Assembly (NCBI GenBank): GCA_012513575.1 | Contig: JAAZBX010000015.1 | Location: forward strand, 1 to 36,960 | DNA: 36,960 nt | From: Candidatus Dojkabacteria bacterium | GTDB lineage: Bacteria; Patescibacteriota; Dojkabacteria; SC72 | Direction of reading: 5' to 3' | In this document: in pieces, positions 18,239-30,364 of the stretch | Numbering within the stretch: position 1 is the stretch's first letter | Layout: every line of letters begins with the position of its first letter | Notes under the pieces: generated by a model | Told to the model about the DNA's origin: nothing | Databases searched by the model: none | What the model saw: the letters and a program-made list of their open reading frames with translations, nothing else | Position numbers and translations under genes: made by a program

Positions 18239-21200
18239 TTACTTCAATTGAGTACGTTTGATTGAAATAATTTTTTCAATATCTAATGTGGGCCTTGATT
18301 TCTGTCCATCAATACTTGTAACGTCTCCCTCGTTTATGAAAGGCCCTCTATATATTAACTTTGCAGGTGGCATAGGTGTTAAGCGCATAATAGGTTGTAC
18401 CCTTAAGGATACTGTGTCTCCAATTCTAACTTTATCAAAAGAAATTAATTTCTTAAATAATCTCATTACTCTTCTATTTCCTCTTCTATCTTCAACAGTG
18501 ATAGTTTGGTAAGACTCTCCATCAACTTTTTTGCCTCTTGATTTTCCAACGACCTTAAGTTCTTCAAACTCTAAGAGAAGTTTTGGAAAATCTGTACCAT
18601 ATGGATTAGTTTGTTGAGAGATGTGGGTGGAAATAATGTCAGCTACTGCAAACGGATTTAGATAATTGAAGGATTTGATAAGTTCAGGAGAAGATTTTTT
18701 TAATTCATTTTTTAACTCTTTTATTGTAGTTTCAATTTTTACAACCCCTGCATCAGGGTTAATTGGTTTATACTTCTCAAATAATGGGTCCAAAACATTA
18801 TGTAATTGTTCAATACCACCCTGAACTTGCCAAGTTCCCCCCGAGGCTAGTGGATGACCACCATGTGCAATTATTTTTATTCCAGGTTGAGGATTCTTTT
18901 CTAAGTACAATTGAATCATGTCTGTAGATACATTCCCTCTAGCAGGAAGCCTAAATGATACACTGTAAGTCTTTGAGTCATTCTCCTTACTCTCTCCCTC
19001 TGCAACTATAACCATTGTAGGCTTCTCATATCTTTCCGATATATTTCCAGCAATTAGTCCCCTTTGTCCCTGTAGTGCATCAATATACTCTAGACCTTTT
19101 TGCTCTATGATTATTAAAGGCCTTTCTCTTTCATCTTCGTGTGTATCTAGGTATTTATAGTGTTCTGCAAGAAGTTCCTCTCTTCTTTGTATAGCCTTGT
19201 CTTGCGCATAAGGAAGAGTGTGGCGGTGTCTTCTAATTTTGTTTGTCTCAGATTTTTTAATAAATACATCACTAATTTCGGGTAATACGCTGTCAGCTCT
19301 TAGAGCTTCTTCTGGTTTTGCTCTTCTGTAGATAGCGTTAGTTGAAGCCGCCATAATATGAGAAAAGAATCTAGAATTATAATAGTTTACGGCTGTGAAA
19401 TTTGTTTCTCGAAGTGCAATTCGGATGAACCTTAGACTTTCAGGTAATATCCTTTTAAATTGTCTCTCTCTCCATGTATTTGAAGGCTCTTTTTGGTATT
19501 GTTTTGATAGATCTGTGAGTTCCCTCATGGCGTCCTTTACAATATATCTATTTTCCATACCAATCCCAATTCCAATGGAACCACCATCACCTATTGTTGC
19601 TGTAGCCTCCAAAAGTTTTAATTGCTGAAGTCCGAATGGTCCATGTTTCAAGTACGATTTTAGAGCAAAGCTTTCATTTACAGTTAATTCTTTGCTGTCT
19701 TCCATTGATGAATAGCATAAATTCCAAATTTCGTTCCCAAGTTTTCTTGCTTTCTCTCTTCTTTTCTTGTTGTATTTTTTTGAATTTGGAATAAGCCTGT
19801 CATCTTCAAACAAAGGGGGTTGAAATGCTCCTTGGTTTATACTTGAAGGAGTAGAGAGATGAGCTTCTATAATATTAAAAAGTTCTTTTTTTACATCTCT
19901 AACATGTTTACCAAGTGTAATCCAAGAGTGAATCGCATCAGAGAGAGGTGTTTCTCCTTTATTTGCAATTCTCGAAGAAACCAAATCCTCGTCAATATAT
20001 TCAGCCAATTTGATAATTTTTTCTCTTGCCCATATCTCTTTTGATTTGGTGTCCATCTCAAAAAAAGATTTTGGCATATTTCCACTTTGTTCCAAAACAA
20101 ATCTTTGTTCCTCTAAACTTAATGAATCAAAATCCTTGTCAAGGTATTTTTTTAGCAATTTCTCTCGTTTTTCTTTTGATTGGAGAAGATACTCCTTGCT
20201 TCTGGCTTTAACTATTGGTTCATCACTAAAAAGGTTCATCACCCTTCTAATTACCTTTCCTGTGGTTACAGTACCTACTAAGTCTGATTCAGGGTAGCAT
20301 CTATATTTTCTTTGAGTCCTATCAATTTTTTCGTGATCCACAACACCGTTTTCATCAGGTGTTAAGGCTTCCTGCATCTCGTTGATAAAGTCAATTTCTT
20401 TCCACCATTTCATTACCCATTGTGGATTTACCATTATATCTTGAGAATGTTCAAGAAAATATTCAATCGATTTAATTGAAGGTGTGTGATGGTCACAAAC
20501 GATTAACCTTACATCATTTTTAAAACCATTTACAAACATCCTTAGTGGTTCGTAGGAGCCTAATGTAGATGTACTTTCGATATTGTTAACAGGATTTACA
20601 AATGTGAATTTTCTAGAAAATAAGCCTTCCTTATTGAAAGTATCCCAAGGATTATTTGTAATAAAAAGTTGTAATCTCCTTTTAATCGATTTTTTTTGTT
20701 CTTCGGGAAATTTTGCAAACCCATTTATTCTTTCAATATTATCTAAGAAATATTGAAGATCCGAAATCTTGTTTGTACCAGAATGGAATGTTTGAAAAGC
20801 TTTGCAATCTTCATCGCTTGAACCTGTATCACAAATTATTATTAATTTATTACCTGCAACACCAAGATTAATTAAATCCGTTAACTGTACAGAATGGCCT
20901 TCAATTCTAGTATTAAATTTTTGGTCAACTTTCGGGACACCTATTTTTTCTAGAGCCCACCTCATGTTGTTAGTAGCATTAAATCCATCTTGGTCACAAT
21001 CTGCGATAGTGGCGATTTTTTCACCCTTAATAATTGCACCATAAATTATTTCAGCGGCTTCTTCTACATTTTGAAGTGCACTCGGAGGTTGAAGATTCTT
21101 TTCAGTTGGAAACATTAACTCATTAAAATGCTCTTTTGACGAGATACCTAGGGATTCATAATATTTGGAGAGAATTAAATTTGCAGAATATCCTTCAATT

Positions 21201-22906
21201 ACATTTAAATCCCTTGTAGGACCGTATATTTCGTATGACAATTTCAAATCCGGGTCTTTAAGTTTATCAAAATCAAGAGCTTCCCTTTTGGGAACTTGGG
21301 GTCTTTGAAGAATTCCGTTAAAACAAGGAGTTTCTAGAACATCTGCAAGCTTTCTTATTTCTGTACCTTTTTCGTTATAAGGACTAATGGTTACATCCTT
21401 CAATGTATCCAAATCGAGTCTAAACTTCCATTCGGGTCTAACACACCCAAGTTTACGTGGAGTGACAATATTAATTAATATTGACTCGTCTAATTGTTCT
21501 TGCAAGGCCAATATCGCATTGTATTCATCTTCAGAGAGATTATCTAGGTAGAGTGGACTTGTATTATTTTCTAACCTAGTGATTAAGCCGTTAATTAAAT
21601 TAACATACGAAAGGTTAAGACCTTTTTTGTGAGTTCTTTGTAGATCGGAAAGGTATTTATTAAGTTTATTTATCGAAGTATCTCTTTCAATTAAGTCGGC
21701 GATAAAGGACAAATTACTTATTGATTCTTTTTCTTCTTTGGTTAGTTCGTCTTGTGGGGTACTTCCTCTTCCTGTTACAATTCTTTCAGAAATATTCTTT
21801 ATATTCTGTAAATCTTCCTCGGAAAGAAGTGAAATCCAAGAAACATCTATAGCTTTTGCTTTATCAATAATAGACAATGCTTCTTTGGATACTTCTCTTC
21901 GATATTCTAAGATATATTTGTTGGAGAGATTAGAGTAGAGTGCTGGTGCATGTCTTATTAATTCTGCAGAGGGAGTGTTTGCCTGATAAGAAAAATATGC
22001 AAGTCTAATAAGTTCATTTAATTCTTCTTGCGAGACAACATTTTGATCTTCGCTAAGATTATCATTTTCTATTCTCTTCTTTTTTTCTTCAATTAGTATT
22101 TGGAGAACATCCGCAGCATCAACAGCTACCTGTGTGTGCTCAAACCAGTGACTAGCAATGGACATGGGTATTTGAGACAAGCCACCTTGGGAAGCGGGTA
22201 TTTTATGTTGATCATTCTCATTTAGGTATGTAGCTTCACTATCATTTAAAGCAACAATTCTTTCACCTTGAATAATTGCTTCCTCAGGTTCAATTCCAAG
22301 TTTTTTTGCCATTATCTCAGCAGTAATTCTTTCAATATCACCATCATCTAATCGTCTTCCCCCAACCCATTTGCTTTCATCAATCCATCTCTCACCCGTA
22401 ACAAATTGTAAAACCTTTCCTAGGTTCGCAAGTTGATTCATTGTTGGGATTCCAGAAGTAAATAGCAATTTATGAACAGCAAATTCCAATGCTTTATCAT
22501 ATGAACTCCTATTTAATCCTTCTGTTCTACTTTCTCTTTGGTTGTATGGAACAATTTTTCCTAATACTACAGGAGGATCAAAGAGTAAATCTTTTTTTAA
22601 TGTTCGTTCTCTTTCTTTTATTTTCTTCTCAGACCAATATTTGCTTACATCCTTTTGAGTAAATAGATATCGATTCTCTGTAACTAGCTCTTGTGTTGTT
22701 TTTAGTACATCACGGTAATTTCTTCCTGTAGGAGAAACAAAACCATCAAAGATCTCATTTTTTAAAGAAATTATATTTGAGATTTCTTCTTTCTCTTCAT
22801 CAGTAGTATCTCGGACAAAAAAATTACTATACCTTGGTGACAAACTTTCTTTAATATCTAGTGCTGGATCTATTGTGTAATTCTCTACATCTGAAGTTTT
22901 ATTCAT
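18239..22906 (-). CDS. Giant RecJ-like DHH/DHHA1 phosphoesterase with long N-terminal extension and large insertions
   Basis: EKIATIADCDQDG (motif I), ICDTG (II), VCDHH (III), ATIGD (IV), GLIAGNISERYEKP, HGGHPLASG (DHHA1), PYGTDFP and an OB-like C-terminus; 1555 aa. Confidence 0.85.
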   Translation of the reverse strand: MNKTSDVENYTIDPALDIKESLSPRYSNFFVRDTTDEEKEEISNIISLKNEIFDGFVSPTGRNYRDVLKTTQELVTENRYLFTQKDVSKYWSEKKIKERERTLKKDLLFDPPVVLGKIVPYNQRESRTEGLNRSSYDKALEFAVHKLLFTSGIPTMNQLANLGKVLQFVTGERWIDESKWVGGRRLDDGDIERITAEIMAKKLGIEPEEAIIQGERIVALNDSEATYLNENDQHKIPASQGGLSQIPMSIASHWFEHTQVAVDAADVLQILIEEKKKRIENDNLSEDQNVVSQEELNELIRLAYFSYQANTPSAELIRHAPALYSNLSNKYILEYRREVSKEALSIIDKAKAIDVSWISLLSEEDLQNIKNISERIVTGRGSTPQDELTKEEKESISNLSFIADLIERDTSINKLNKYLSDLQRTHKKGLNLSYVNLINGLITRLENNTSPLYLDNLSEDEYNAILALQEQLDESILINIVTPRKLGCVRPEWKFRLDLDTLKDVTISPYNEKGTEIRKLADVLETPCFNGILQRPQVPKREALDFDKLKDPDLKLSYEIYGPTRDLNVIEGYSANLILSKYYESLGISSKEHFNELMFPTEKNLQPPSALQNVEEAAEIIYGAIIKGEKIATIADCDQDGFNATNNMRWALEKIGVPKVDQKFNTRIEGHSVQLTDLINLGVAGNKLIIICDTGSSDEDCKAFQTFHSGTNKISDLQYFLDNIERINGFAKFPEEQKKSIKRRLQLFITNNPWDTFNKEGLFSRKFTFVNPVNNIESTSTLGSYEPLRMFVNGFKNDVRLIVCDHHTPSIKSIEYFLEHSQDIMVNPQWVMKWWKEIDFINEMQEALTPDENGVVDHEKIDRTQRKYRCYPESDLVGTVTTGKVIRRVMNLFSDEPIVKARSKEYLLQSKEKREKLLKKYLDKDFDSLSLEEQRFVLEQSGNMPKSFFEMDTKSKEIWAREKIIKLAEYIDEDLVSSRIANKGETPLSDAIHSWITLGKHVRDVKKELFNIIEAHLSTPSSINQGAFQPPLFEDDRLIPNSKKYNKKRREKARKLGNEIWNLCYSSMEDSKELTVNESFALKSYLKHGPFGLQQLKLLEATATIGDGGSIGIGIGMENRYIVKDAMRELTDLSKQYQKEPSNTWRERQFKRILPESLRFIRIALRETNFTAVNYYNSRFFSHIMAASTNAIYRRAKPEEALRADSVLPEISDVFIKKSETNKIRRHRHTLPYAQDKAIQRREELLAEHYKYLDTHEDERERPLIIIEQKGLEYIDALQGQRGLIAGNISERYEKPTMVIVAEGESKENDSKTYSVSFRLPARGNVSTDMIQLYLEKNPQPGIKIIAHGGHPLASGGTWQVQGGIEQLHNVLDPLFEKYKPINPDAGVVKIETTIKELKNELKKSSPELIKSFNYLNPFAVADIISTHISQQTNPYGTDFPKLLLEFEELKVVGKSRGKKVDGESYQTITVEDRRGNRRVMRLFKKLISFDKVRIGDTVSLRVQPIMRLTPMPPAKLIYRGPFINEGDVTSIDGQKSRPTLDIEKIISIKRTQLK

Positions 22907-24672: not shown

Positions 24673-25323
24673 ATGGATATTAGATTAACAGCTAAACAGG
24701 AAGAGGTATTAAGGATTATAAGGAACTTTTATTTAGAAAAAGGTTTTGCCCCATCTCTTAATGAGTTAAAGGATGTTCTTGGAATTTCTACTAAAAGAGG
24801 TGTAGTAATACATCTGATTGCCCTTGAGAAGAAAGGTTATATTTTTAGAACTGGACAGGCTAGAGGTATCCATTTGGTTGGAAATGATGAAGAAATAGCT
24901 TACGATTATCTTGTTGGAGTTCCGATATTAGGATATGCAAATGCAGGAACTCCTTTAGTTGCAGCGCAGGAGGAAAATATTGGGATATTAAAGATAGATA
25001 AAAATATTCTGAGGCAAAAAACAAATATTTTTAGTCTAATTATTAAAGGAGATTCTATGAATCAAGCAGTAATTGGGGGAGAAAAACTTCAAGATGGAAA
25101 ATATATTATAGTTCAAAAGGATTCAGAGATAGAAGATGGGGATATTGTTGTTGCAATTATTGATAATTGTGCCACTGTAAAAAGATTTAAAAAGGGTAAA
25201 AATATGGTTATTCTTTATCCCGATTCCGACAATCCACTTTTTCAACCTATTTATTTGGATAGTAACAGTGATTCTTTGATTAATGGGAAGGTAATTCAAA
25301 TATTGGAAAACCCAACTATCTAA
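24673..25323 (+). CDS. lexA: SOS repressor LexA
   Basis: LTAKQ..GFAPSLNEL..HLIALEKKGYI..ARGI winged helix; Ala-Gly cleavage site (ANAG), GDSM (Ser) and TVKR (Lys). Confidence 0.95.
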   Translation: MDIRLTAKQEEVLRIIRNFYLEKGFAPSLNELKDVLGISTKRGVVIHLIALEKKGYIFRTGQARGIHLVGNDEEIAYDYLVGVPILGYANAGTPLVAAQEENIGILKIDKNILRQKTNIFSLIIKGDSMNQAVIGGEKLQDGKYIIVQKDSEIEDGDIVVAIIDNCATVKRFKKGKNMVILYPDSDNPLFQPIYLDSNSDSLINGKVIQILENPTI

Positions 25324-26011
25324 CTTGTGAATTTTTAACAAATTTTCTAGCACCCAGAAGAATTTTATTTAACTCATTATCATTGAAAGAGTTAGAAACT
25401 GATAGAGTTGGATTGAGTGTTTTACCAGGGCGAAAATTTTGTATGTAATATTTTTTACTACCTCTAATTAGTTTTGCAATACTTTCCGAGTCTTTAATTT
25501 TATGGATTCCTTTAACATAGGTTGTTCTGAATTCATAATCAACTCCTGAATTCATTATTATTTCAATAGACTTAATTACCTTATCTAAGCTATTTTTATC
25601 TGCAGTTCTTTTGGGGTATTCCTTCTCGGGATATTTTATATCCATAGCTATATAATCTAGTAGATGTAAATCTATTAATCTTTGTAGTTTTTCTGGGAAA
25701 AAACCGTTTGTATCTAGTTTGACAAGAAGGTCTAATTCTCTAATCTTACTAATCAAAACAGCAATATCATCATATATTAAGGGCTCTCCCCCTGTAATAA
25801 CAACAGCATCAATCTTTCCCTTTCTTTGCTTTAAATAGCTTAGGATATCATCAATATTTATCTGGAGTTCTTTATTCAATTCTTTTACTACCAATTCTGG
25901 ATTGTGGCAATACTCACATCTTAAATTACAGCCGTAAGTAAAAATAATTGTTGATATTTTCCCAGGATAATCAAGAAGAGAAACCTTTTCTAACCCTCCA
26001 ATCTGTATCAT
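25316..26011 (-). CDS. nrdG: Anaerobic ribonucleotide reductase activating enzyme (radical SAM)
   Basis: SLLDYPG, GCNLRCEYCHN (CxxxCxxC), VITGGEP, KLDTNG, AMDIK, YEFRTT. Confidence 0.95.
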   Translation of the reverse strand: MIQIGGLEKVSLLDYPGKISTIIFTYGCNLRCEYCHNPELVVKELNKELQINIDDILSYLKQRKGKIDAVVITGGEPLIYDDIAVLISKIRELDLLVKLDTNGFFPEKLQRLIDLHLLDYIAMDIKYPEKEYPKRTADKNSLDKVIKSIEIIMNSGVDYEFRTTYVKGIHKIKDSESIAKLIRGSKKYYIQNFRPGKTLNPTLSVSNSFNDNELNKILLGARKFVKNSQVR

Positions 26012-26145
26012 TAAAGAGTCTTCATTTTAAACATTTTTCTATCAGACCATTCGGCTTGTTTCCCAATATTCCATTGAGAAATTGGACGAATATATCCAAC
26101 CACTCTTGAATAAACCTCACATCTTTGCCTTGTTACTTTTTTCAT
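26011..26145 (-). CDS. Stand-alone 44-aa glycyl-radical domain of class III ribonucleotide reductase
   Basis: Manual translation: MKKVTRQRCEVYSRVVGYIRPISQWNIGKQAEWSDRKMFKMKTL. YSRVVGY is the NrdD glycyl-radical motif; its stop overlaps the nrdG start (TAATG). Below the ORF-track size cutoff. Confidence 0.9.
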   Translation of the reverse strand: MKKVTRQRCEVYSRVVGYIRPISQWNIGKQAEWSDRKMFKMKTL

Positions 26146-26163
26146 TTTTGTTTTGTTATTAAA

Positions 26164-28251
26164 TTAACTAATTTCATTAAAGGACATTCCTTCTTTATAT
26201 CCCACCTCACAGTCACACTTAGGACAGTAAAAGTGTTCACCTGGGATATATCCGTGCTTTGGACATATACTAAATGTTGGAGTGATTGAGAAGTAGGGCA
26301 ATTTATAATTCTCTGCAATTTTTCTCACTAGATTTTTTACTGCCTCAGGAGATGTAATTTGTTCTCCAATGTAAACGTGTTGAACAGTACCGCCTGTGTA
26401 AAGACACTGAAATTCATCTTGTAAATCTAATGCTTCAAAGATGTCATCAGTCAGTCCAACAGGAATCTGTGAACTGTTTGTATAGTATGGCACTATATCC
26501 CGGCCTTTATGTTCGCCTATGTCAGACGCTGCTATAATTGAATCTCCAAAGCGCTTCTTATCTGCCTTTGCAAACTTATAAGTTGCTCCTTCTCCAGGTG
26601 TTGCTTCCAAATTAAAAAGTTCATTGGTTTTTAATTGATAAGTCATCAATCGTTCTCTCATGTGATTCATTATCTCAATACCAAATTCTCGGCCTTCTTC
26701 TGAAGTAATCCCCTTATTTGAATCTTTGTAGAAGTTTATAAGTGCCTCATTGAGTCCTAATATTCCAATTGTGTTAAAATGATTTTTGTAGTACTCTCCG
26801 AACCTCTTTTTAATATCAGATAAGTAGAATTTGGAATATGGATAAAGACCTTTATCCATATATTTCTCAAGGAATCTCCTTTTAATTTGCAAGCTCTTCT
26901 TTGCTAAATCCATCTGAATATTTAACCTTTTAAAAAAGTCTCTTTTGTTTGCTGCTTCGAAACCAATTCTGGGAAGATTAATTGTTACTACACCAATACT
27001 ACCAGTTAATGGGTTGGCGCCAAACAAACCGCCACCTCTTTTTCTAAGCTCCCTGTTATCAAGTCTCAATCTGCAGCACATACTTCTTGCATCGTCAGGA
27101 CTCATGTCAGAATTTATAAAGTTTGAAAAATAAGGGATACCATATTTGGCTGTCATCTCCCAGATAGGTTTGTACTCAGGATTGTCCCAATCAAAGTCCT
27201 TTGTGAGATTGTAGGTAGGAATAGGGTAGGAAAACAGTCGTCCCTGTGCATCTCCTTCCATCATAATTTCACAAAAGGCCTTATTAATCATATTCATTTC
27301 ATTCTGAAATTCACAGTATTTCTCTTTTTGTATTTGACCCCCAATAATCACCCCCTGCTGTGCAAGTTGTCCCGAAGGAATTAAATCCATAGTAATATTA
27401 GTGAAAGGTGTTTGACAACCAACCCTAGTTGGAACATTCATATTGTAAAGAAACTCTTGCATTTTCTGTTTAACCTGTTTGTAGGATAGTTTGTCAAACT
27501 TAACAAAAGGAGCAAGAAATGTATCGAAGCTTGAAAAAGCTTGAGCTCCTGCCGCTTCATGTTGAAGTGTGTAAAGGTAATTTACGACTTGCCCTAATGC
27601 TGCACTAAAATGCTTTGCTGGGGAAGAAGAGATCTTTCCTTCAACGCCTGTAAAACCCTTAAGAAGCAAATCTTCTAAACTCCAACCGCAACAGTATGTT
27701 GCCAACATCCCTAAGTCATGAATATGATAATCTTTATTAATATTTCCGGTAGAAATTTCTTTTGGATATATGCTGTGAAGCCAGTAATTTGATTGGACAG
27801 TAGTTGAAATATAGTTATTTAAACCTTGCCAAGAATAAGCCATATTACTGTTCTCATTAACTTGCCAATCAAGTTTGTCGATATAGTCTTTAACAAGCGT
27901 GTTCGCATCGATTAACGATTTAATATTCTTAACCTGGTGTTTGAGATCAATAAAGAGTTTGTACGCAATTGAGGTTTTAGTATGTCCCATGTCAATTAGT
28001 GTCTGAGCAACAATATCCGCAATTTCGCTACTCTTAATTACTTCCTTATTAGAATATTTACTCTTAATAATCTTTATTACTTCTTCAGCTATCTCTTCTG
28101 CTCTTTTCTTATTTTTACCACCAACACTATCAGCGGCCTTAAAAATACCTCGAACAATACTATCTTTACGAAAAGCAACTAAACTTCCATCTCTCTTTTT
28201 AACCTTTAATTTTTTACTAATAGGTATTTGAATTTTATTTGGGGCAGACAT
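26164..28251 (-). CDS. nrdD: Anaerobic (class III) ribonucleoside-triphosphate reductase large subunit, lacking its C-terminal glycyl-radical segment
   Basis: N-terminal ATP cone (VKKRDG), HIHDL, YCCGW, AGAQAF, SMCCRL, TGSIGVVTINLPR, EATPGE, YTGGTV, Zn site CPKH..CPKC, then stop. ATG 28251 preferred to TTG 28278. Confidence 0.95.
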   Translation of the reverse strand: MSAPNKIQIPISKKLKVKKRDGSLVAFRKDSIVRGIFKAADSVGGKNKKRAEEIAEEVIKIIKSKYSNKEVIKSSEIADIVAQTLIDMGHTKTSIAYKLFIDLKHQVKNIKSLIDANTLVKDYIDKLDWQVNENSNMAYSWQGLNNYISTTVQSNYWLHSIYPKEISTGNINKDYHIHDLGMLATYCCGWSLEDLLLKGFTGVEGKISSSPAKHFSAALGQVVNYLYTLQHEAAGAQAFSSFDTFLAPFVKFDKLSYKQVKQKMQEFLYNMNVPTRVGCQTPFTNITMDLIPSGQLAQQGVIIGGQIQKEKYCEFQNEMNMINKAFCEIMMEGDAQGRLFSYPIPTYNLTKDFDWDNPEYKPIWEMTAKYGIPYFSNFINSDMSPDDARSMCCRLRLDNRELRKRGGGLFGANPLTGSIGVVTINLPRIGFEAANKRDFFKRLNIQMDLAKKSLQIKRRFLEKYMDKGLYPYSKFYLSDIKKRFGEYYKNHFNTIGILGLNEALINFYKDSNKGITSEEGREFGIEIMNHMRERLMTYQLKTNELFNLEATPGEGATYKFAKADKKRFGDSIIAASDIGEHKGRDIVPYYTNSSQIPVGLTDDIFEALDLQDEFQCLYTGGTVQHVYIGEQITSPEAVKNLVRKIAENYKLPYFSITPTFSICPKHGYIPGEHFYCPKCDCEVGYKEGMSFNEIS

Positions 28252-28267
28252 ATTTGTAAAATTTAAA

Positions 28268-28714
28268 TTAATTCTCAATACTATCTATTTCCTTTCTTAC
28301 ATCTTCTAAAGTCTCAAATTTCTTATAGACCGAAGCGAACCGAATATACGCCAATTTATCCTTTCCTTTAAGCCAATCTAAAGTTTTTAAGCCAATTTCA
28401 TTTGTTGAGAGAGGCTCTTCACTATTTAGAGCGATTCTCTCAATTTCTTCAGCAAAATCCCTAATCTCTTCCTCCTTTACATGCTCATGATTTAAAGCTT
28501 TTTTTATCCCTTTCACAATTTTCTCTGAATCAAATTTCTCTAAAGAGCCATCTTTTTTTATTACATTCACTTCTAGGCTTTCCAATCTCTCGTAGGTAGT
28601 AAAACGTTTCCCACATCTTAGACATTGTCTTCTTCTTCGTGTTGACCTGTCTTCATTATTGTCCCTTTTATCTACTACCTTTGTAATCTCACATTCACAA
28701 AAAGGGCATTTCAT
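28268..28714 (-). CDS. nrdR: Transcriptional repressor NrdR
   Basis: MKCPFC, RRRRQCLRCGKRFTTYE, ATP cone VIKKDG, AYIRFASVY. Confidence 0.98.
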   Translation of the reverse strand: MKCPFCECEITKVVDKRDNNEDRSTRRRRQCLRCGKRFTTYERLESLEVNVIKKDGSLEKFDSEKIVKGIKKALNHEHVKEEEIRDFAEEIERIALNSEEPLSTNEIGLKTLDWLKGKDKLAYIRFASVYKKFETLEDVRKEIDSIEN

Positions 28715-28934: not shown

Positions 28935-29426
28935 ATGGTTATTTCCCTAGAAGAGTTTGCCAAGTTAAGAGACAATGAATTAAAAGACAAAAAGATTGTT
29001 TGTACATCAGGTTTTTTTGACCCACTTCATCCTGGTCATGCATCATGTATTTTTGAATCAAAGAAATTTGGAGATATTTTGGTAGTTATAGTCGATGGAG
29101 ATCAACGTGCAGTAACAAAGAAAGGCAAATCATTTATGCCCGAAATGGACAGAGCAAGGATAGTTGATTACATTAAAGGTGTTGATTATGTAGTTATATA
29201 TAACAGTACTATTAGAAATGATTGTGTTGAAGCTGTAGAGGCAATTAGACCAGATGTTTTCACAAAGGGAGGAGATAGAGATGGGAGTAAAAATGTTCCA
29301 GAATTTGAGGTTGTAGAGAAGTATGGGGGCAGGGTAGAGTTTAATGTAGGAGATCCTAAAATGTGGTCAAGTTCAAACTACCTTAAAGAATGGGTTGATT
29401 TTGTAAATAGAAACAAAAGTGATTAG
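28935..29426 (+). CDS. Cytidylyltransferase/adenylyltransferase family protein (RfaE domain II/TagD-like)
   Basis: SGFFDPLHPGH (HxGH), GDILVVIVDGD, KKG..FM...R, IRPDVFTKGGD, SSS. Confidence 0.88.
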   Translation: MVISLEEFAKLRDNELKDKKIVCTSGFFDPLHPGHASCIFESKKFGDILVVIVDGDQRAVTKKGKSFMPEMDRARIVDYIKGVDYVVIYNSTIRNDCVEAVEAIRPDVFTKGGDRDGSKNVPEFEVVEKYGGRVEFNVGDPKMWSSSNYLKEWVDFVNRNKSD

Positions 29427-30364
29427 ATACTATTTGTTTTTTTATTGCTTAAGTACAAATATATTGAATTAGCAGCCACAGCTCCTTCTCCAACAGCAGT
29501 AACAACTTGCTTAAAAAAGTTAGAATTTGTTGTACAATCACCGGCCGCCCATATACCCTCAATACTGGTTCTTTGTTCTTTATCCACAACAATATAGTTG
29601 TGTTCATCCACTTGAATATCTAGCTTAATGGGTAGGGTAATATTAGGTTCGCTTCCAATTTCAATAAATACTCCATCTACATCTAGATACTTTGAATCAT
29701 TGTATGGTTTCGAAAGCTTAATTTTCTCAAGTCTTAATTCCCCGATTAAATCTATTATTAAGGTTTGGTAAATAATATGGATATTGCTTCTATTAAGCGC
29801 TTGTTCTGCCCATGTGGGATCTCCCCTAAGTTCTGAGCCACGATAAATTACATATACTTCCTTGGCAACATCTGAGAGCATTGTAGCTGCCATTGTGGCT
29901 GCACTCGAGCCACCGACTACTGCAACTATTTTGTTTTTGTAAAACATAGAATCACATGTGGCACAATAGGAAAGGCCCTTTCCCAGAAAAGAATCTTCTT
30001 TAGGTATAGCTAATTTGTTTCGGTCTGTTCCTGTTGCAAAAAGAACAACCTTTGATAAGTATTCTCCGTTATCATCCGTAAATATTTTGAAAAAATCACC
30101 ATCCCTTTTAATATTTACAACGCTTTTAGGCAGATATTCTGTCCCAACATTTTTTGAATGAGTTAGCATTCTTTGTCCTAATTCAAGCCCTGACACATCT
30201 TCAAGTCCTGGGTAGTTACATACCATATGTGCTTCTGTAATTGTTCCTCCTGGAAGTTTTCCAAATACAATTGTTTTAAGTTTGTATCTACTGGAGTATA
30301 TACTTGCACTTAAACCAGCAGGACCACTTCCAACTATTGCTACATCATAGATTTCTTTATTCAT
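29423..30364 (-). CDS. trxB: Thioredoxin reductase
   Basis: GSGPAGLSA, NYPG, GLSYCATCD, VVGG, GVFIEIG, AAGDCT, QVVTAVGEG. Confidence 0.93.
   Translation of the reverse strand: MNKEIYDVAIVGSGPAGLSASIYSSRYKLKTIVFGKLPGGTITEAHMVCNYPGLEDVSGLELGQRMLTHSKNVGTEYLPKSVVNIKRDGDFFKIFTDDNGEYLSKVVLFATGTDRNKLAIPKEDSFLGKGLSYCATCDSMFYKNKIVAVVGGSSAATMAATMLSDVAKEVYVIYRGSELRGDPTWAEQALNRSNIHIIYQTLIIDLIGELRLEKIKLSKPYNDSKYLDVDGVFIEIGSEPNITLPIKLDIQVDEHNYIVVDKEQRTSIEGIWAAGDCTTNSNFFKQVVTAVGEGAVAANSIYLYLSNKKTNSI

Follow-up and report, generated by a model that had tools for sequence, protein, structure and literature searches.

It is proposed that the working class III ribonucleotide reductase (RNR) of this Candidatus Dojkabacteria bacterium consists of two polypeptides and the activase NrdG, an arrangement that the sequence and the structural modelling make very probable. 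On the minus strand of the window, i.e. the whole stretch of 36,960 nucleotides that was analysed, the operon runs from nrdR through the nrdD body, an 18-nt spacer and a 44-aa ORF to nrdG. The first-pass annotation of this DNA had suggested a class III RNR encoded by three genes, its radical glycine being carried by a small polypeptide of its own, and the idea is now strongly supported by conservation of the split with a variable reading frame, purifying selection on the peptide, the status of the split enzyme as the sole RNR found in the genome, and docking. The features of the locus are as follows.

28268..28714, minus strand: nrdR (Pfam Zn_ribbon_NrdR, 5.6e-16, and ATP-cone, 2.8e-15)
26164..28278, minus strand: nrdD body, 704 aa (NF006126, 988 bits; Pfam NRDD and ATP-cone)
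26167..26214, minus strand: body tail, the 16 residues DCEVGYKEGMSFNEIS after the last zinc cysteine
26164..26166, minus strand: TAA stop of the body, the same in contigs of four other runs
26146..26163, minus strand: spacer, 18 nt, A+T-rich
26011..26145, minus strand: 44-aa glycyl-radical peptide, coordinates including its stop (Pfam NRDD, 531-562 of 562, 2.2e-09)
26095..26097, minus strand: codon of Gly17, predicted radical site within RVVGY (invariant in 57 peptides)
25316..26011, minus strand: nrdG, radical SAM activase with the cluster motif CNLRCEYC (TIGR02495 NrdG2, 203.8 bits; Radical_SAM, 4.8e-26)

The first gene of the cluster, nrdR, encodes a Zn-ribbon and ATP-cone repressor, and its 3' end overlaps the TTG start of nrdD, for which an alternative ATG exists at codon 10 (28251). 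The nrdD body exceeds the curated NrdD cut-offs (988 bits against 548 for NF006126 and 506 bits against 326 for TIGR02487) and contains an ATP-cone, a catalytic barrel, the finger-loop CC and a zinc site, CPKH...CPKC, with no radical glycine. Its finger loop SMCCRL is invariant in 45 bodies and aligns to the corresponding loop of T. maritima NrdD (4COI), and in the zinc ribbon, a predicted metal site, conservation of the C, the H and the two later C is complete or at least 90%. The chain ends in ...CPKCDCEVGYKEGMSFNEIS, 16 residues beyond the last zinc cysteine, and RVxGY with its radical glycine is absent from this C-terminus; the glycine is carried by the next ORF. On the Pfam NRDD profile (562 positions) the body covers 1-528 and the peptide 531-562, and on the NCBIfam NF006126 profile (684 positions) they cover 4-652 and 648-683, respectively; this coverage is complementary, so that what the body is missing is precisely the radical-glycine segment, which the small ORF provides. 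The ORF map and profile coverage thus bear out the annotation's description of an NrdD that stops 16 residues past its Zn site without the radical glycine, the ORF coordinates agree with a small ORF that begins 18 nt after the body stop and whose own stop overlaps the nrdG ATG, and the translation confirms, for the window, that both ORFs share one frame across a single TAA and an AT-rich spacer. The body tail is specific to split forms, with a core D-x-E-x-G-Y that is at least 90% conserved in 45 split bodies.

The peptide ORF begins with the ATG at 26145 and reads MKKVTRQRCEVYSRVVGYIRPISQWNIGKQAEWSDRKMFKMKTL. NRDD is its only Pfam match at E <= 0.01, and a glycine-radical domain of the pyruvate formate-lyase (PFL) type is absent from it. 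Residues R14, G17, N26, K29, E32 and R36 are invariant in 57 peptides, the pN/pS ratio is 0.10 (210 pairs from 21 sequences), and the codons vary at 36 of 39 third positions and at 9 of 39 second positions; the ORF is under strong purifying selection. Among relatives, identity to the window is 55-98% for the peptide against 45-77% for nrdG. Stand-alone homologues of the peptide number 127, with lengths of 39-74 aa, and the best 150 of 5266 representatives are all 45-115 aa long. The peptide TAA and the nrdG ATG overlap by one base (TAATG, 26009-26013), and the product of the adjoining activase gene scores 203.8 bits on TIGR02495, for which the cut-off is 131. No Shine-Dalgarno-like motif exists in the spacer (26146-26163), which is uninformative because only 4 of the 30 ORFs of the window have one. 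A consensus scan, weak evidence either way, found no promoter- or terminator-like site at the junction (26146-26166) and 11 promoter-like sites across the region, with 15.9 expected. Two RNA-library contigs, X15 and X17, cover nrdG, the peptide and the 3' end of the body, which is no proof of transcription since such contigs reveal neither the existence of a transcript nor where it ends or how abundant it is, and the libraries may contain DNA.

The idea that faulty assembly or sequencing put the TAA into a one-chain gene has in its favour only the a priori possibility that attends a metagenome-assembled genome. The stretch is present in 20 runs from 14 studies, and the junction is spanned by contigs of two DNA runs and two RNA-library runs from four studies, all of which retain the TAA and have no indel; two variants nearby, at 26182 and 26062, are both synonymous. 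With 29 of 29 relatives examined being split at the same place in addition, the chance of such an error is negligible, and the TAA at 26164-26166, whose authenticity the annotation had asked to be confirmed, is genuine. Since all 30 related loci examined share the layout and independent assemblies share the stop, the layout is beyond chance. The survey of homologs for the split and for a variable frame offset, also proposed there, gave a clear answer: the split and a conserved ATG were found in 30 of 30 loci (the window's own and 29 relatives, which are not independent samples), with a body-peptide offset of 0 in 13, 1 in 7 and 2 in 10, and the 19 further split loci across the phylum, where the junction consists of gaps of 7-219 nt or overlaps, have offsets of 0 in 5, 1 in 8 and 2 in 6. 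Read-through or another recoding event that joins body and peptide into one chain, so that the separate ORF is only apparent, would fit the window, in frame across one TAA, and the 13 of 30 related loci that are in frame, but this count hardly departs from the one-third that chance predicts, 17 of the 30 related and 14 of the 19 phylum-level loci are out of frame, the genes overlap by 4-35 nt at some loci, several in-frame related loci have two or three stops in the spacer, and the ATG is conserved at a fixed distance before the radical motif; we consider such joining highly improbable. The in-frame TAA of the window has no special meaning, given that 17 of 30 loci are not in frame and that some of the others have two or three stops. 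A ribosomal hop across the junction was ruled out by the same survey. The remaining rival at the level of the gene is pseudogene decay, with the cell living on imported deoxynucleosides and the small ORF left as a remnant. The genome is reduced to 716 kb, and 12 of 60 relatives have no NrdD match to the window query, which would suit decay. Yet the body, the peptide and nrdG are all intact, the split has been kept across families, classes and beyond, and no frameshift or relaxed selection was seen in the body or nrdG among close relatives; together with the pN/pS of the peptide, the body score far over the equivalog cut-off and the conserved split-specific tail, these make decay very unlikely.

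The genome is 98.9% complete and contains a single NrdD match and a single peptide match. A search for the class I/II catalytic domain PF02867 gave 0 matches in it, and the same search was positive in 12 of 14 control genomes. The split NrdD is therefore the only RNR found in this genome, which is no proof that it is essential, since members of a phylum with reduced metabolism might salvage deoxynucleosides.

Modelling of the body-peptide complex gave a confident docking with an ipSAE of 0.77, against 0.00 for the best of three controls, a result to be taken as likeness to one-chain structures and not as binding because the model may recall the one-chain NrdD structures 8P23, 4COI, 4U3E and 1H78. 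Of 80 solved complexes, 58 attain this ipSAE mark, as do 2 of 110 mismatched pairs, counts that are only rough because our own alignments were used here. The model runs have at least 92% of contacts in common, with a partner pLDDT of at least 77 and an interface of 193-197 contacts. In the model, peptide residues 6-12 pair with the zinc-ribbon strands and the body tail contacts the peptide, which lies at the position of the radical segment in one-chain enzymes.

We propose the following scheme for the split enzyme. From the body would come an ATP-cone, a barrel bearing the finger-loop cysteines, and a zinc ribbon; the peptide would be translated from its own ATG. It would dock on the zinc ribbon and on the tail that split bodies conserve, with its RVVGY loop entering the barrel, where Gly17 would fill the place of the C-terminal radical glycine of one-chain NrdD. 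NrdG, the start of which is coupled to the peptide stop, would abstract a hydrogen from Gly17 with SAM, acting on either the free or the bound peptide, and the assembled complex would then reduce NTPs. A trxB-like gene, at 29423-30364 of the window, is a candidate source of thioredoxin reductase.

By profile, the split enzyme belongs to the same family as the one-chain NrdD/NrdG systems of T. maritima (4COI/4U3E), P. copri (8P23) and phage T4 (1H78), with which it shares the ATP-cone, barrel, finger-loop CC, zinc ribbon, radical-glycine motif and an adjacent NrdG2-type activase. In those enzymes the radical segment follows 3-6 residues past the last zinc cysteine in the same chain, whereas here the two are set apart by the conserved 16-residue tail, a stop codon, the spacer and a further start codon, and the glycine is on a separate 44-aa polypeptide. 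GrcA/YfiD is the autonomous glycyl-radical "spare part" of PFL (PMC8683613, PMC13450708). The PFL beside which it works is full-length and has a glycine of its own, and GrcA rescues this enzyme once oxygen has cleaved it. GrcA resembles the peptide in being a small, free-standing homologue of the C-terminus that bears the radical in a large glycyl radical enzyme, whose activase presumably acts on the small protein too. GrcA is about 127 aa long, against 44 aa for the peptide; moreover, the large protein here never has the glycine, and the peptide matches Pfam NRDD. A full-length client NrdD with its own glycine is absent from the window genome, which has one NrdD locus, and is present in L071 and L097. 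As this genome has a single peptide gene and lacks any full-length NrdD that could be rescued, the peptide here would be an obligate subunit rather than a GrcA-type spare. In the split class II RNR NrdJa/NrdJb of P. aeruginosa, the barrel and a C-terminal module are encoded by two consecutive ORFs (PMC9669993); this enzyme is B12-dependent and its detached piece carries a zinc finger and re-reduction cysteines, not the radical cofactor, and the window genome has no PF02867 domain. Phage nrdD genes with group I introns or homing endonuclease genes have been annotated as two ORFs (PMC3653736); there, mobile elements interrupt the gene, and they are spliced or their fate is unknown. The split NrdD differs in having an 18-nt spacer with no intron, intein or endonuclease, and a break conserved at the boundary of the zinc ribbon and the radical loop.

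The split is old and widespread as judged from its distribution, being found in 83 of 85 matching genomes of the same family, in 51 of the 89 genomes that matched in the rest of the phylum and in archaeal MAGs, so the earlier supposition that the architecture is not unique is correct. A tree of 47 bodies contains a split-type clade of 28 split and 4 fused forms with support of 95/92, in which the fused forms are nested, G029 next to split G033 (100/100) and a trio next to split G049 (100/100); this topology is compatible with one split followed by two re-fusions. In L072 a split apparently arose anew at a different position, the break falling within the zinc site. L071 and L097 have a fused NrdD together with an extra free radical-domain ORF, and orphan copies of the domain exist in other genomes. 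Fused relatives read CD-ER-CEIYSRV-VGY and some peptides are internally duplicated; the tail D-x-E-x-G-Y might be the decayed first copy of a tandem-duplicated radical segment, which is speculation because the tail is too short for statistics. In the window, two copies of the 8-nt sequence TGTGAGGT (26204-26211 and 26114-26121), spaced by 90 nt, flank a 30-codon "insert", and CEV is duplicated; an insertion or mobile-element origin was considered and rejected, the repeat being absent in relatives, whose tails differ (DAEVGY, DSERGY and others). The repeat is ascribed to local chance.

The split may have arisen by neutral gene fission, to which we give somewhat less than an even chance; in that case the peptide would bind once, tightly and stoichiometrically, and would never be exchanged, with no benefit for repair or regulation. 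The single peptide gene that almost every split genome of the class has (two short-frame copies occur only in G180 and G197), the re-fusion in two lineages without visible consequence and the large modelled interface are in line with such fission, while the maintenance of the split over very long times and its apparent new origin in L072, the retention of the split-specific tail, and the extra and orphan radical-domain ORFs point the other way and hint, not decisively, that free radical domains are useful. Tentatively, and with more doubt than expectation, the radical glycine may be seen as a diffusible, replaceable cartridge: NrdG would activate the free 44-aa peptide, the peptide would dock into the glycine-less body, and after O2 cleavage at Gly17 the fragments would depart and a fresh peptide would bring activity back. 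An exchangeable part of this kind had been inferred in the first-pass annotation, with an oxygen cost of 44 aa against about 700. If this is true, repair would cost 44 residues instead of about 750, the departure of the radical loop from the barrel to meet the activase would become a simple bimolecular reaction, and free NrdD-type radical domains would be a general currency among cells and archaea.

To our knowledge, textbook and structural accounts of glycyl radical enzymes locate the radical glycine in the catalytic chain itself, the sole known exception being GrcA for PFL, and we found no published description in the literature of a split NrdD with a separate radical-glycine peptide. If the two-polypeptide enzyme proposed here is indeed the sole RNR of the cell, the radical cofactor would be supplied in trans as a rule and not in an emergency. 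The split NrdD would also be a ready experimental system, in which a synthetic 44-mer could serve as the activase substrate and be isotope-labelled or mutated freely, opening the access of the activase to a buried glycine, the shielding of the radical and oxygen repair via subunit exchange to study. In current annotation the bodies are labelled as complete NrdD and the small ORFs are often uncalled, gaps that could mislead metabolic reconstruction both for the candidate phyla radiation and for DPANN archaea.

Three adjacent, conserved and selected genes on the minus strand of the window hold every element of a class III ribonucleotide reductase (RNR), and no other RNR was found: an NrdD ORF that lacks the radical glycine (the body), a short ORF that carries this glycine in an RVVGY motif (the peptide), and nrdG. 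The features of the nrd operon are as follows.

28268-28714, minus strand: nrdR, first of the nrd genes
26164-28278, minus strand: nrdD body ORF, 704 aa, ending ...CPKCDCEVGYKEGMSFNEIS-TAA
between the nrdD TAA and the peptide ORF, minus strand: A+T-rich spacer, 18 nt
26011-26145, minus strand: peptide ORF, 44 aa
25316-26011, minus strand: nrdG (TIGR02495)

The two ORFs divide the NrdD profiles cleanly. Pfam NRDD (562 positions) matches the body with positions 1-528 and the peptide with 531-562; NCBIfam NF006126 (684 positions) matches them with 4-652 (988 bits against a cut-off of 548) and 648-683, respectively. The nrdG product is an NrdG2-type activase (TIGR02495, 203.8 bits against a cut-off of 131), and its ATG has one base in common with the peptide TAA. 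Since gene coordinates and profile ranges agree, the first-pass annotation, which had described a split nrdD with the radical glycine on a separate ORF overlapping nrdG, was correct in every observed detail. The peptide has no NCBIfam model of its own; it is hit only by models of full-length NrdD, with scores that fall far short of the cut-offs. No Shine-Dalgarno motif precedes the peptide, which is normal here because only 4 of 30 window ORFs have one, and its leader (87% A+T) is like those of other window ORFs. No promoter-like or terminator-like site was found at the body/peptide junction. An 8-nt direct repeat, TGTGAGGT, at 26204-26211 and 26114-26121 puts CEV in both the body tail and the peptide; relatives do not conserve this repeat. 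Two genes upstream of nrdR lies a thioredoxin-reductase-like flavoprotein gene (29423-30364, minus strand; Pyr_redox_2, 4.8e-43), which would fit a thioredoxin-dependent, T. maritima-like NrdD. Elsewhere in the window replication and repair genes are abundant (dnaE, uvrC, uvrB, mutL, lexA), and a 1555-aa ORF at 18239-22906 (minus strand) has no Pfam match at E <= 0.001.

The genome of the window (716 kb, 24 contigs, 98.9% complete) contains one NrdD locus and one peptide gene. A search for the class I/II catalytic domain PF02867 gave no match in it and was positive in 12 of 14 control genomes; the split NrdD is the sole RNR found in this genome. Because the peptide gene is present in one copy and there is nothing to 'rescue', the peptide is an obligate subunit here.

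That the stop is a sequencing or assembly artefact is ruled out by the same TAA in contigs of four other runs. The junction stretch was found in 20 public runs from 14 studies (one possibly the source run) of bioreactor, fermentation, wastewater, sludge and anaerobic-digester metagenomes, and the TAA at 26164-26166 is unchanged and free of indels in junction-spanning contigs from two DNA and two RNA-library runs of four studies, the RNA-library contigs being no proof of transcription. The only nearby variants are 26182 G>A, synonymous in the body, and 26062 C>T, synonymous in the peptide frame; both occur in run X17, and 26062 C>T recurs in a minor X3 contig. Read-through joining body and peptide is ruled out by variable frames, extra stops and a conserved ATG in a junction table of the window and 29 relatives from the same genus, family and order. 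All 30 loci are split, none of the close relatives having a sense codon at the stop, and all possess the conserved ATG, a short spacer rich in A+T (5-35 nt) and a body tail (the conserved stretch following the zinc site) that reads CP-x-C-D-x-E-x-G-Y.... The frame of the peptide relative to the body varies, with 13 loci at 0, 7 at +1 and 10 at +2, and several in-frame loci have two or three stops. The consensus start of the peptide among these loci is close to MKKV-x-RQRCEVYSRVVGYIRP.... For the peptide ORF in 21 sequences from the genus and its closest kin, pS is 0.71 and pN 0.073 (pN/pS 0.10), with variation at 36 of 39 third and 9 of 39 second codon positions.

Further features of the junction differ among relatives. 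A conserved spacer motif, TTTAAATTA...TTACTG(C/T)C, stands directly before the peptide ATG in loci L004, L010-L013, L020-L022, L024 and L027, and is absent from the window's spacer (tttaataacaaaacaaaa). In many loci (L005, L007-L009, L013, L015, L018, L023, L051, L055, L063, L065, L072) the C-terminus of the peptide, right at the start of nrdG, has a cysteine pair (CGCN, CDCE, CATC, CSSC, CCCNN, CTTCSC...) that may serve as a redox tail or bind metal; the window's peptide ends KMKTL, without such a pair.

In the one-chain structures 8P23 (P. copri) and 4COI/4U3E (T. maritima), the peptide-equivalent segment begins 3-6 residues past the last zinc cysteine, and the finger loop of T. maritima NrdD aligns with SMCCRL of the body. 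Body residues 125-704 and the peptide were modelled as a complex with alignments of 45 and 57 rows, giving an ipSAE of 0.77 versus 0.00 for the best of three controls; of 80 solved complexes 58 came up to this mark, as did 2 of 110 mismatched pairs, counts that are only rough because custom alignments were used for the model. Three runs have at least 92% of contacts in common, with a partner pLDDT of at least 77. In the model, peptide residues 6-12 pair with both zinc-ribbon strands, and tail residues V692-Y694 and M698-S704 (full numbering) contact the peptide. Docking of body and peptide is predicted, but the model may reproduce the one-chain NrdD structures already solved, and we read it as likeness to one-chain NrdD, not as binding.

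We propose that the peptide is translated separately and would assemble with the body via the zinc ribbon and the split-specific tail, placing Gly17, its predicted radical glycine, beside the finger-loop cysteines; NrdG would then make the radical on Gly17 of the free or the bound peptide. After oxygen cleavage the peptide may be exchanged, as the first-pass annotation suggested, or may alternatively stay bound for life.

Full-text searches covering the main text of non-subscription articles brought up no description of an NrdD whose radical glycine sits on a polypeptide of its own. In the searchable text of an RNR extension analysis, NrdJa/b is described as a split class II enzyme, and no split class III enzyme appears (PMC9669993); NrdJa/b is also an RNR in two pieces, but of class II rather than class III. 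A phage RNR survey explains most split RNR genes, nrdD included, by introns, inteins and homing endonucleases, with one split nrdD case left without explanation in the portion available (PMC3653736), whereas the window has an 18-nt spacer. In the accessible part of a 2026 glycyl radical enzyme review, spare parts appear only in PFL/GrcA papers of the reference list (PMC13450708); that spare part 'rescues' a complete enzyme, whereas the window's peptide has no full NrdD to rescue. In the available text of two other papers, 'split' refers to networks only (PMC4390871) and nrdD appears as a transferred gene only (PMC13754049).

Stand-alone homologues of the peptide number 127 (39-74 aa) in a set of 5.8 billion proteins, some of which NCBI labels anaerobic ribonucleoside-triphosphate reductase, from Candidatus Dojkabacteria. 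At E <= 0.001 a 57-peptide profile matches 5266 representatives, of which 3350 reach E <= 1e-10; some are on short contigs and possibly fragments, and the best 150 of the 5266 are all 45-115 aa. The peptide is matched in 111 of 220 genomes of the window's class, the 131 match rows comprising 97 in open frames of 43-102 aa, 2 contig-end fragments and 32 in frames of at least 257 aa (one of these 32, G023, has its own 51-aa frame). Within the window's family the peptide is matched in 85 of 98 genomes: 83 with short frames, G029 fused and G208 with contig-end fragments only. In an evenly drawn phylum sample of 401 genomes, 110 match, 89 of them outside the class, with the motif in a 47-123-aa frame in 51 of the 89 and in a long frame in 38. 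The order body, peptide, nrdG occurs in 19 of 20 loci inspected from this sample, which leave out the weak short-frame matches of G231, G258, G282, G305 and G326; offsets 0, 1 and 2 are seen in 5, 8 and 6 of the 19 split loci, the genes being separated by 7-219 nt or overlapping by 4-35 nt. The 80 best loci from 185,579 species genomes, four classed by eye because N runs or the locus start interrupt frames, include 53 fused, 19 adjacent split, one split with 1.5 kb between the pieces, one fused with an extra radical-domain ORF, and six without a body within 2.6 kb upstream. Record titles of the 19, MAG labels that may be wrong, are Dojkabacteria (6), Saccharibacteria (2), Patescibacteria group (3), Gammaproteobacteria MAG (2), bacterium (2), Woesearchaeota, Thermoplasmatales and uncultured archaeon (2); by these labels, the split extends to other phyla and to archaea.

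A maximum-likelihood tree was built from 47 NrdD bodies of 58 ORFs, 11 truncated by locus ends being left out. The split-type genes form one clade of 32 rows (support 95/92), sister to a fused paralogue clade with an RVVGK motif (100/99). Nested within the split clade are four fused genes: that of G029 beside split G033 (100/100), and a trio from another family beside split G049 (100/100). In 200/200 bootstrap trees the split label has to change three times, and one old split followed by two re-fusions is the most economical reading. The genes read as re-fused (e.g. CPKCVVESNNQKCEVYSR...) are without the long tail. The RVVGK paralogue, a tandem one-chain gene, adjoins split or re-fused nrdD in many genomes of the order (L034-L036, L039, L042, L044, L046-L050), a third paralogue (PLVYSRVVGYYRP) being present in some of them; in the window's family, only the split copy seems to be retained. 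Locus L085 (Nanoarchaeota-labelled MAG) encodes NrdD as one chain (922 codons, counted from stop to stop) with an in-frame split-type tail and leader (..CDKENNYKEGDAESALKRTKCEVYSR..), either a pre-split state or a re-fusion through stop loss. In two genomes of one genus in family f17, G115 and G116, the motif stands in a 649-aa frame in one versus a 53-aa frame in its congener, possibly a recent split or re-fusion. A break within the zinc site is seen in locus L072 (G268) and in other family f60 genomes: the L072 body stops after the third zinc ligand (..GEHYECNQ...*) and its peptide begins MESKCGKK...VYSRVVGY, supplying a cysteine. This is probably an independent split, and because it falls within the zinc site, the metal site would be common to two chains.

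Radical domains are also found in other arrangements. Two loci, L071 (902-3408, G293) and L097, have a complete one-chain NrdD followed 130-270 nt downstream, before nrdG, by an extra ORF of ~90 aa that combines a separate zinc ribbon (CHDC...CKDC) with a radical-glycine segment of near-identical sequence, a true spare-part arrangement for NrdD. Orphan proteins with the NrdD-type radical motif occur in Desulfobacterales/Thermodesulfobacteriota MAGs (L106, L107, L124, L131) and a Peptococcales MAG (L093), which lack both an NrdD body in the 2.6 kb upstream and an nrdG downstream; a zinc ribbon is present in four of the five, and L093 is just 51 aa. Together, L071, L097 and the orphan copies show that free radical domains exist also alongside complete enzymes. 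In three stand-alone peptides (P0121, P0128, P0257) the radical-glycine segment is duplicated in tandem within the chain, with two RV-x-GY motifs in 56-73 aa.
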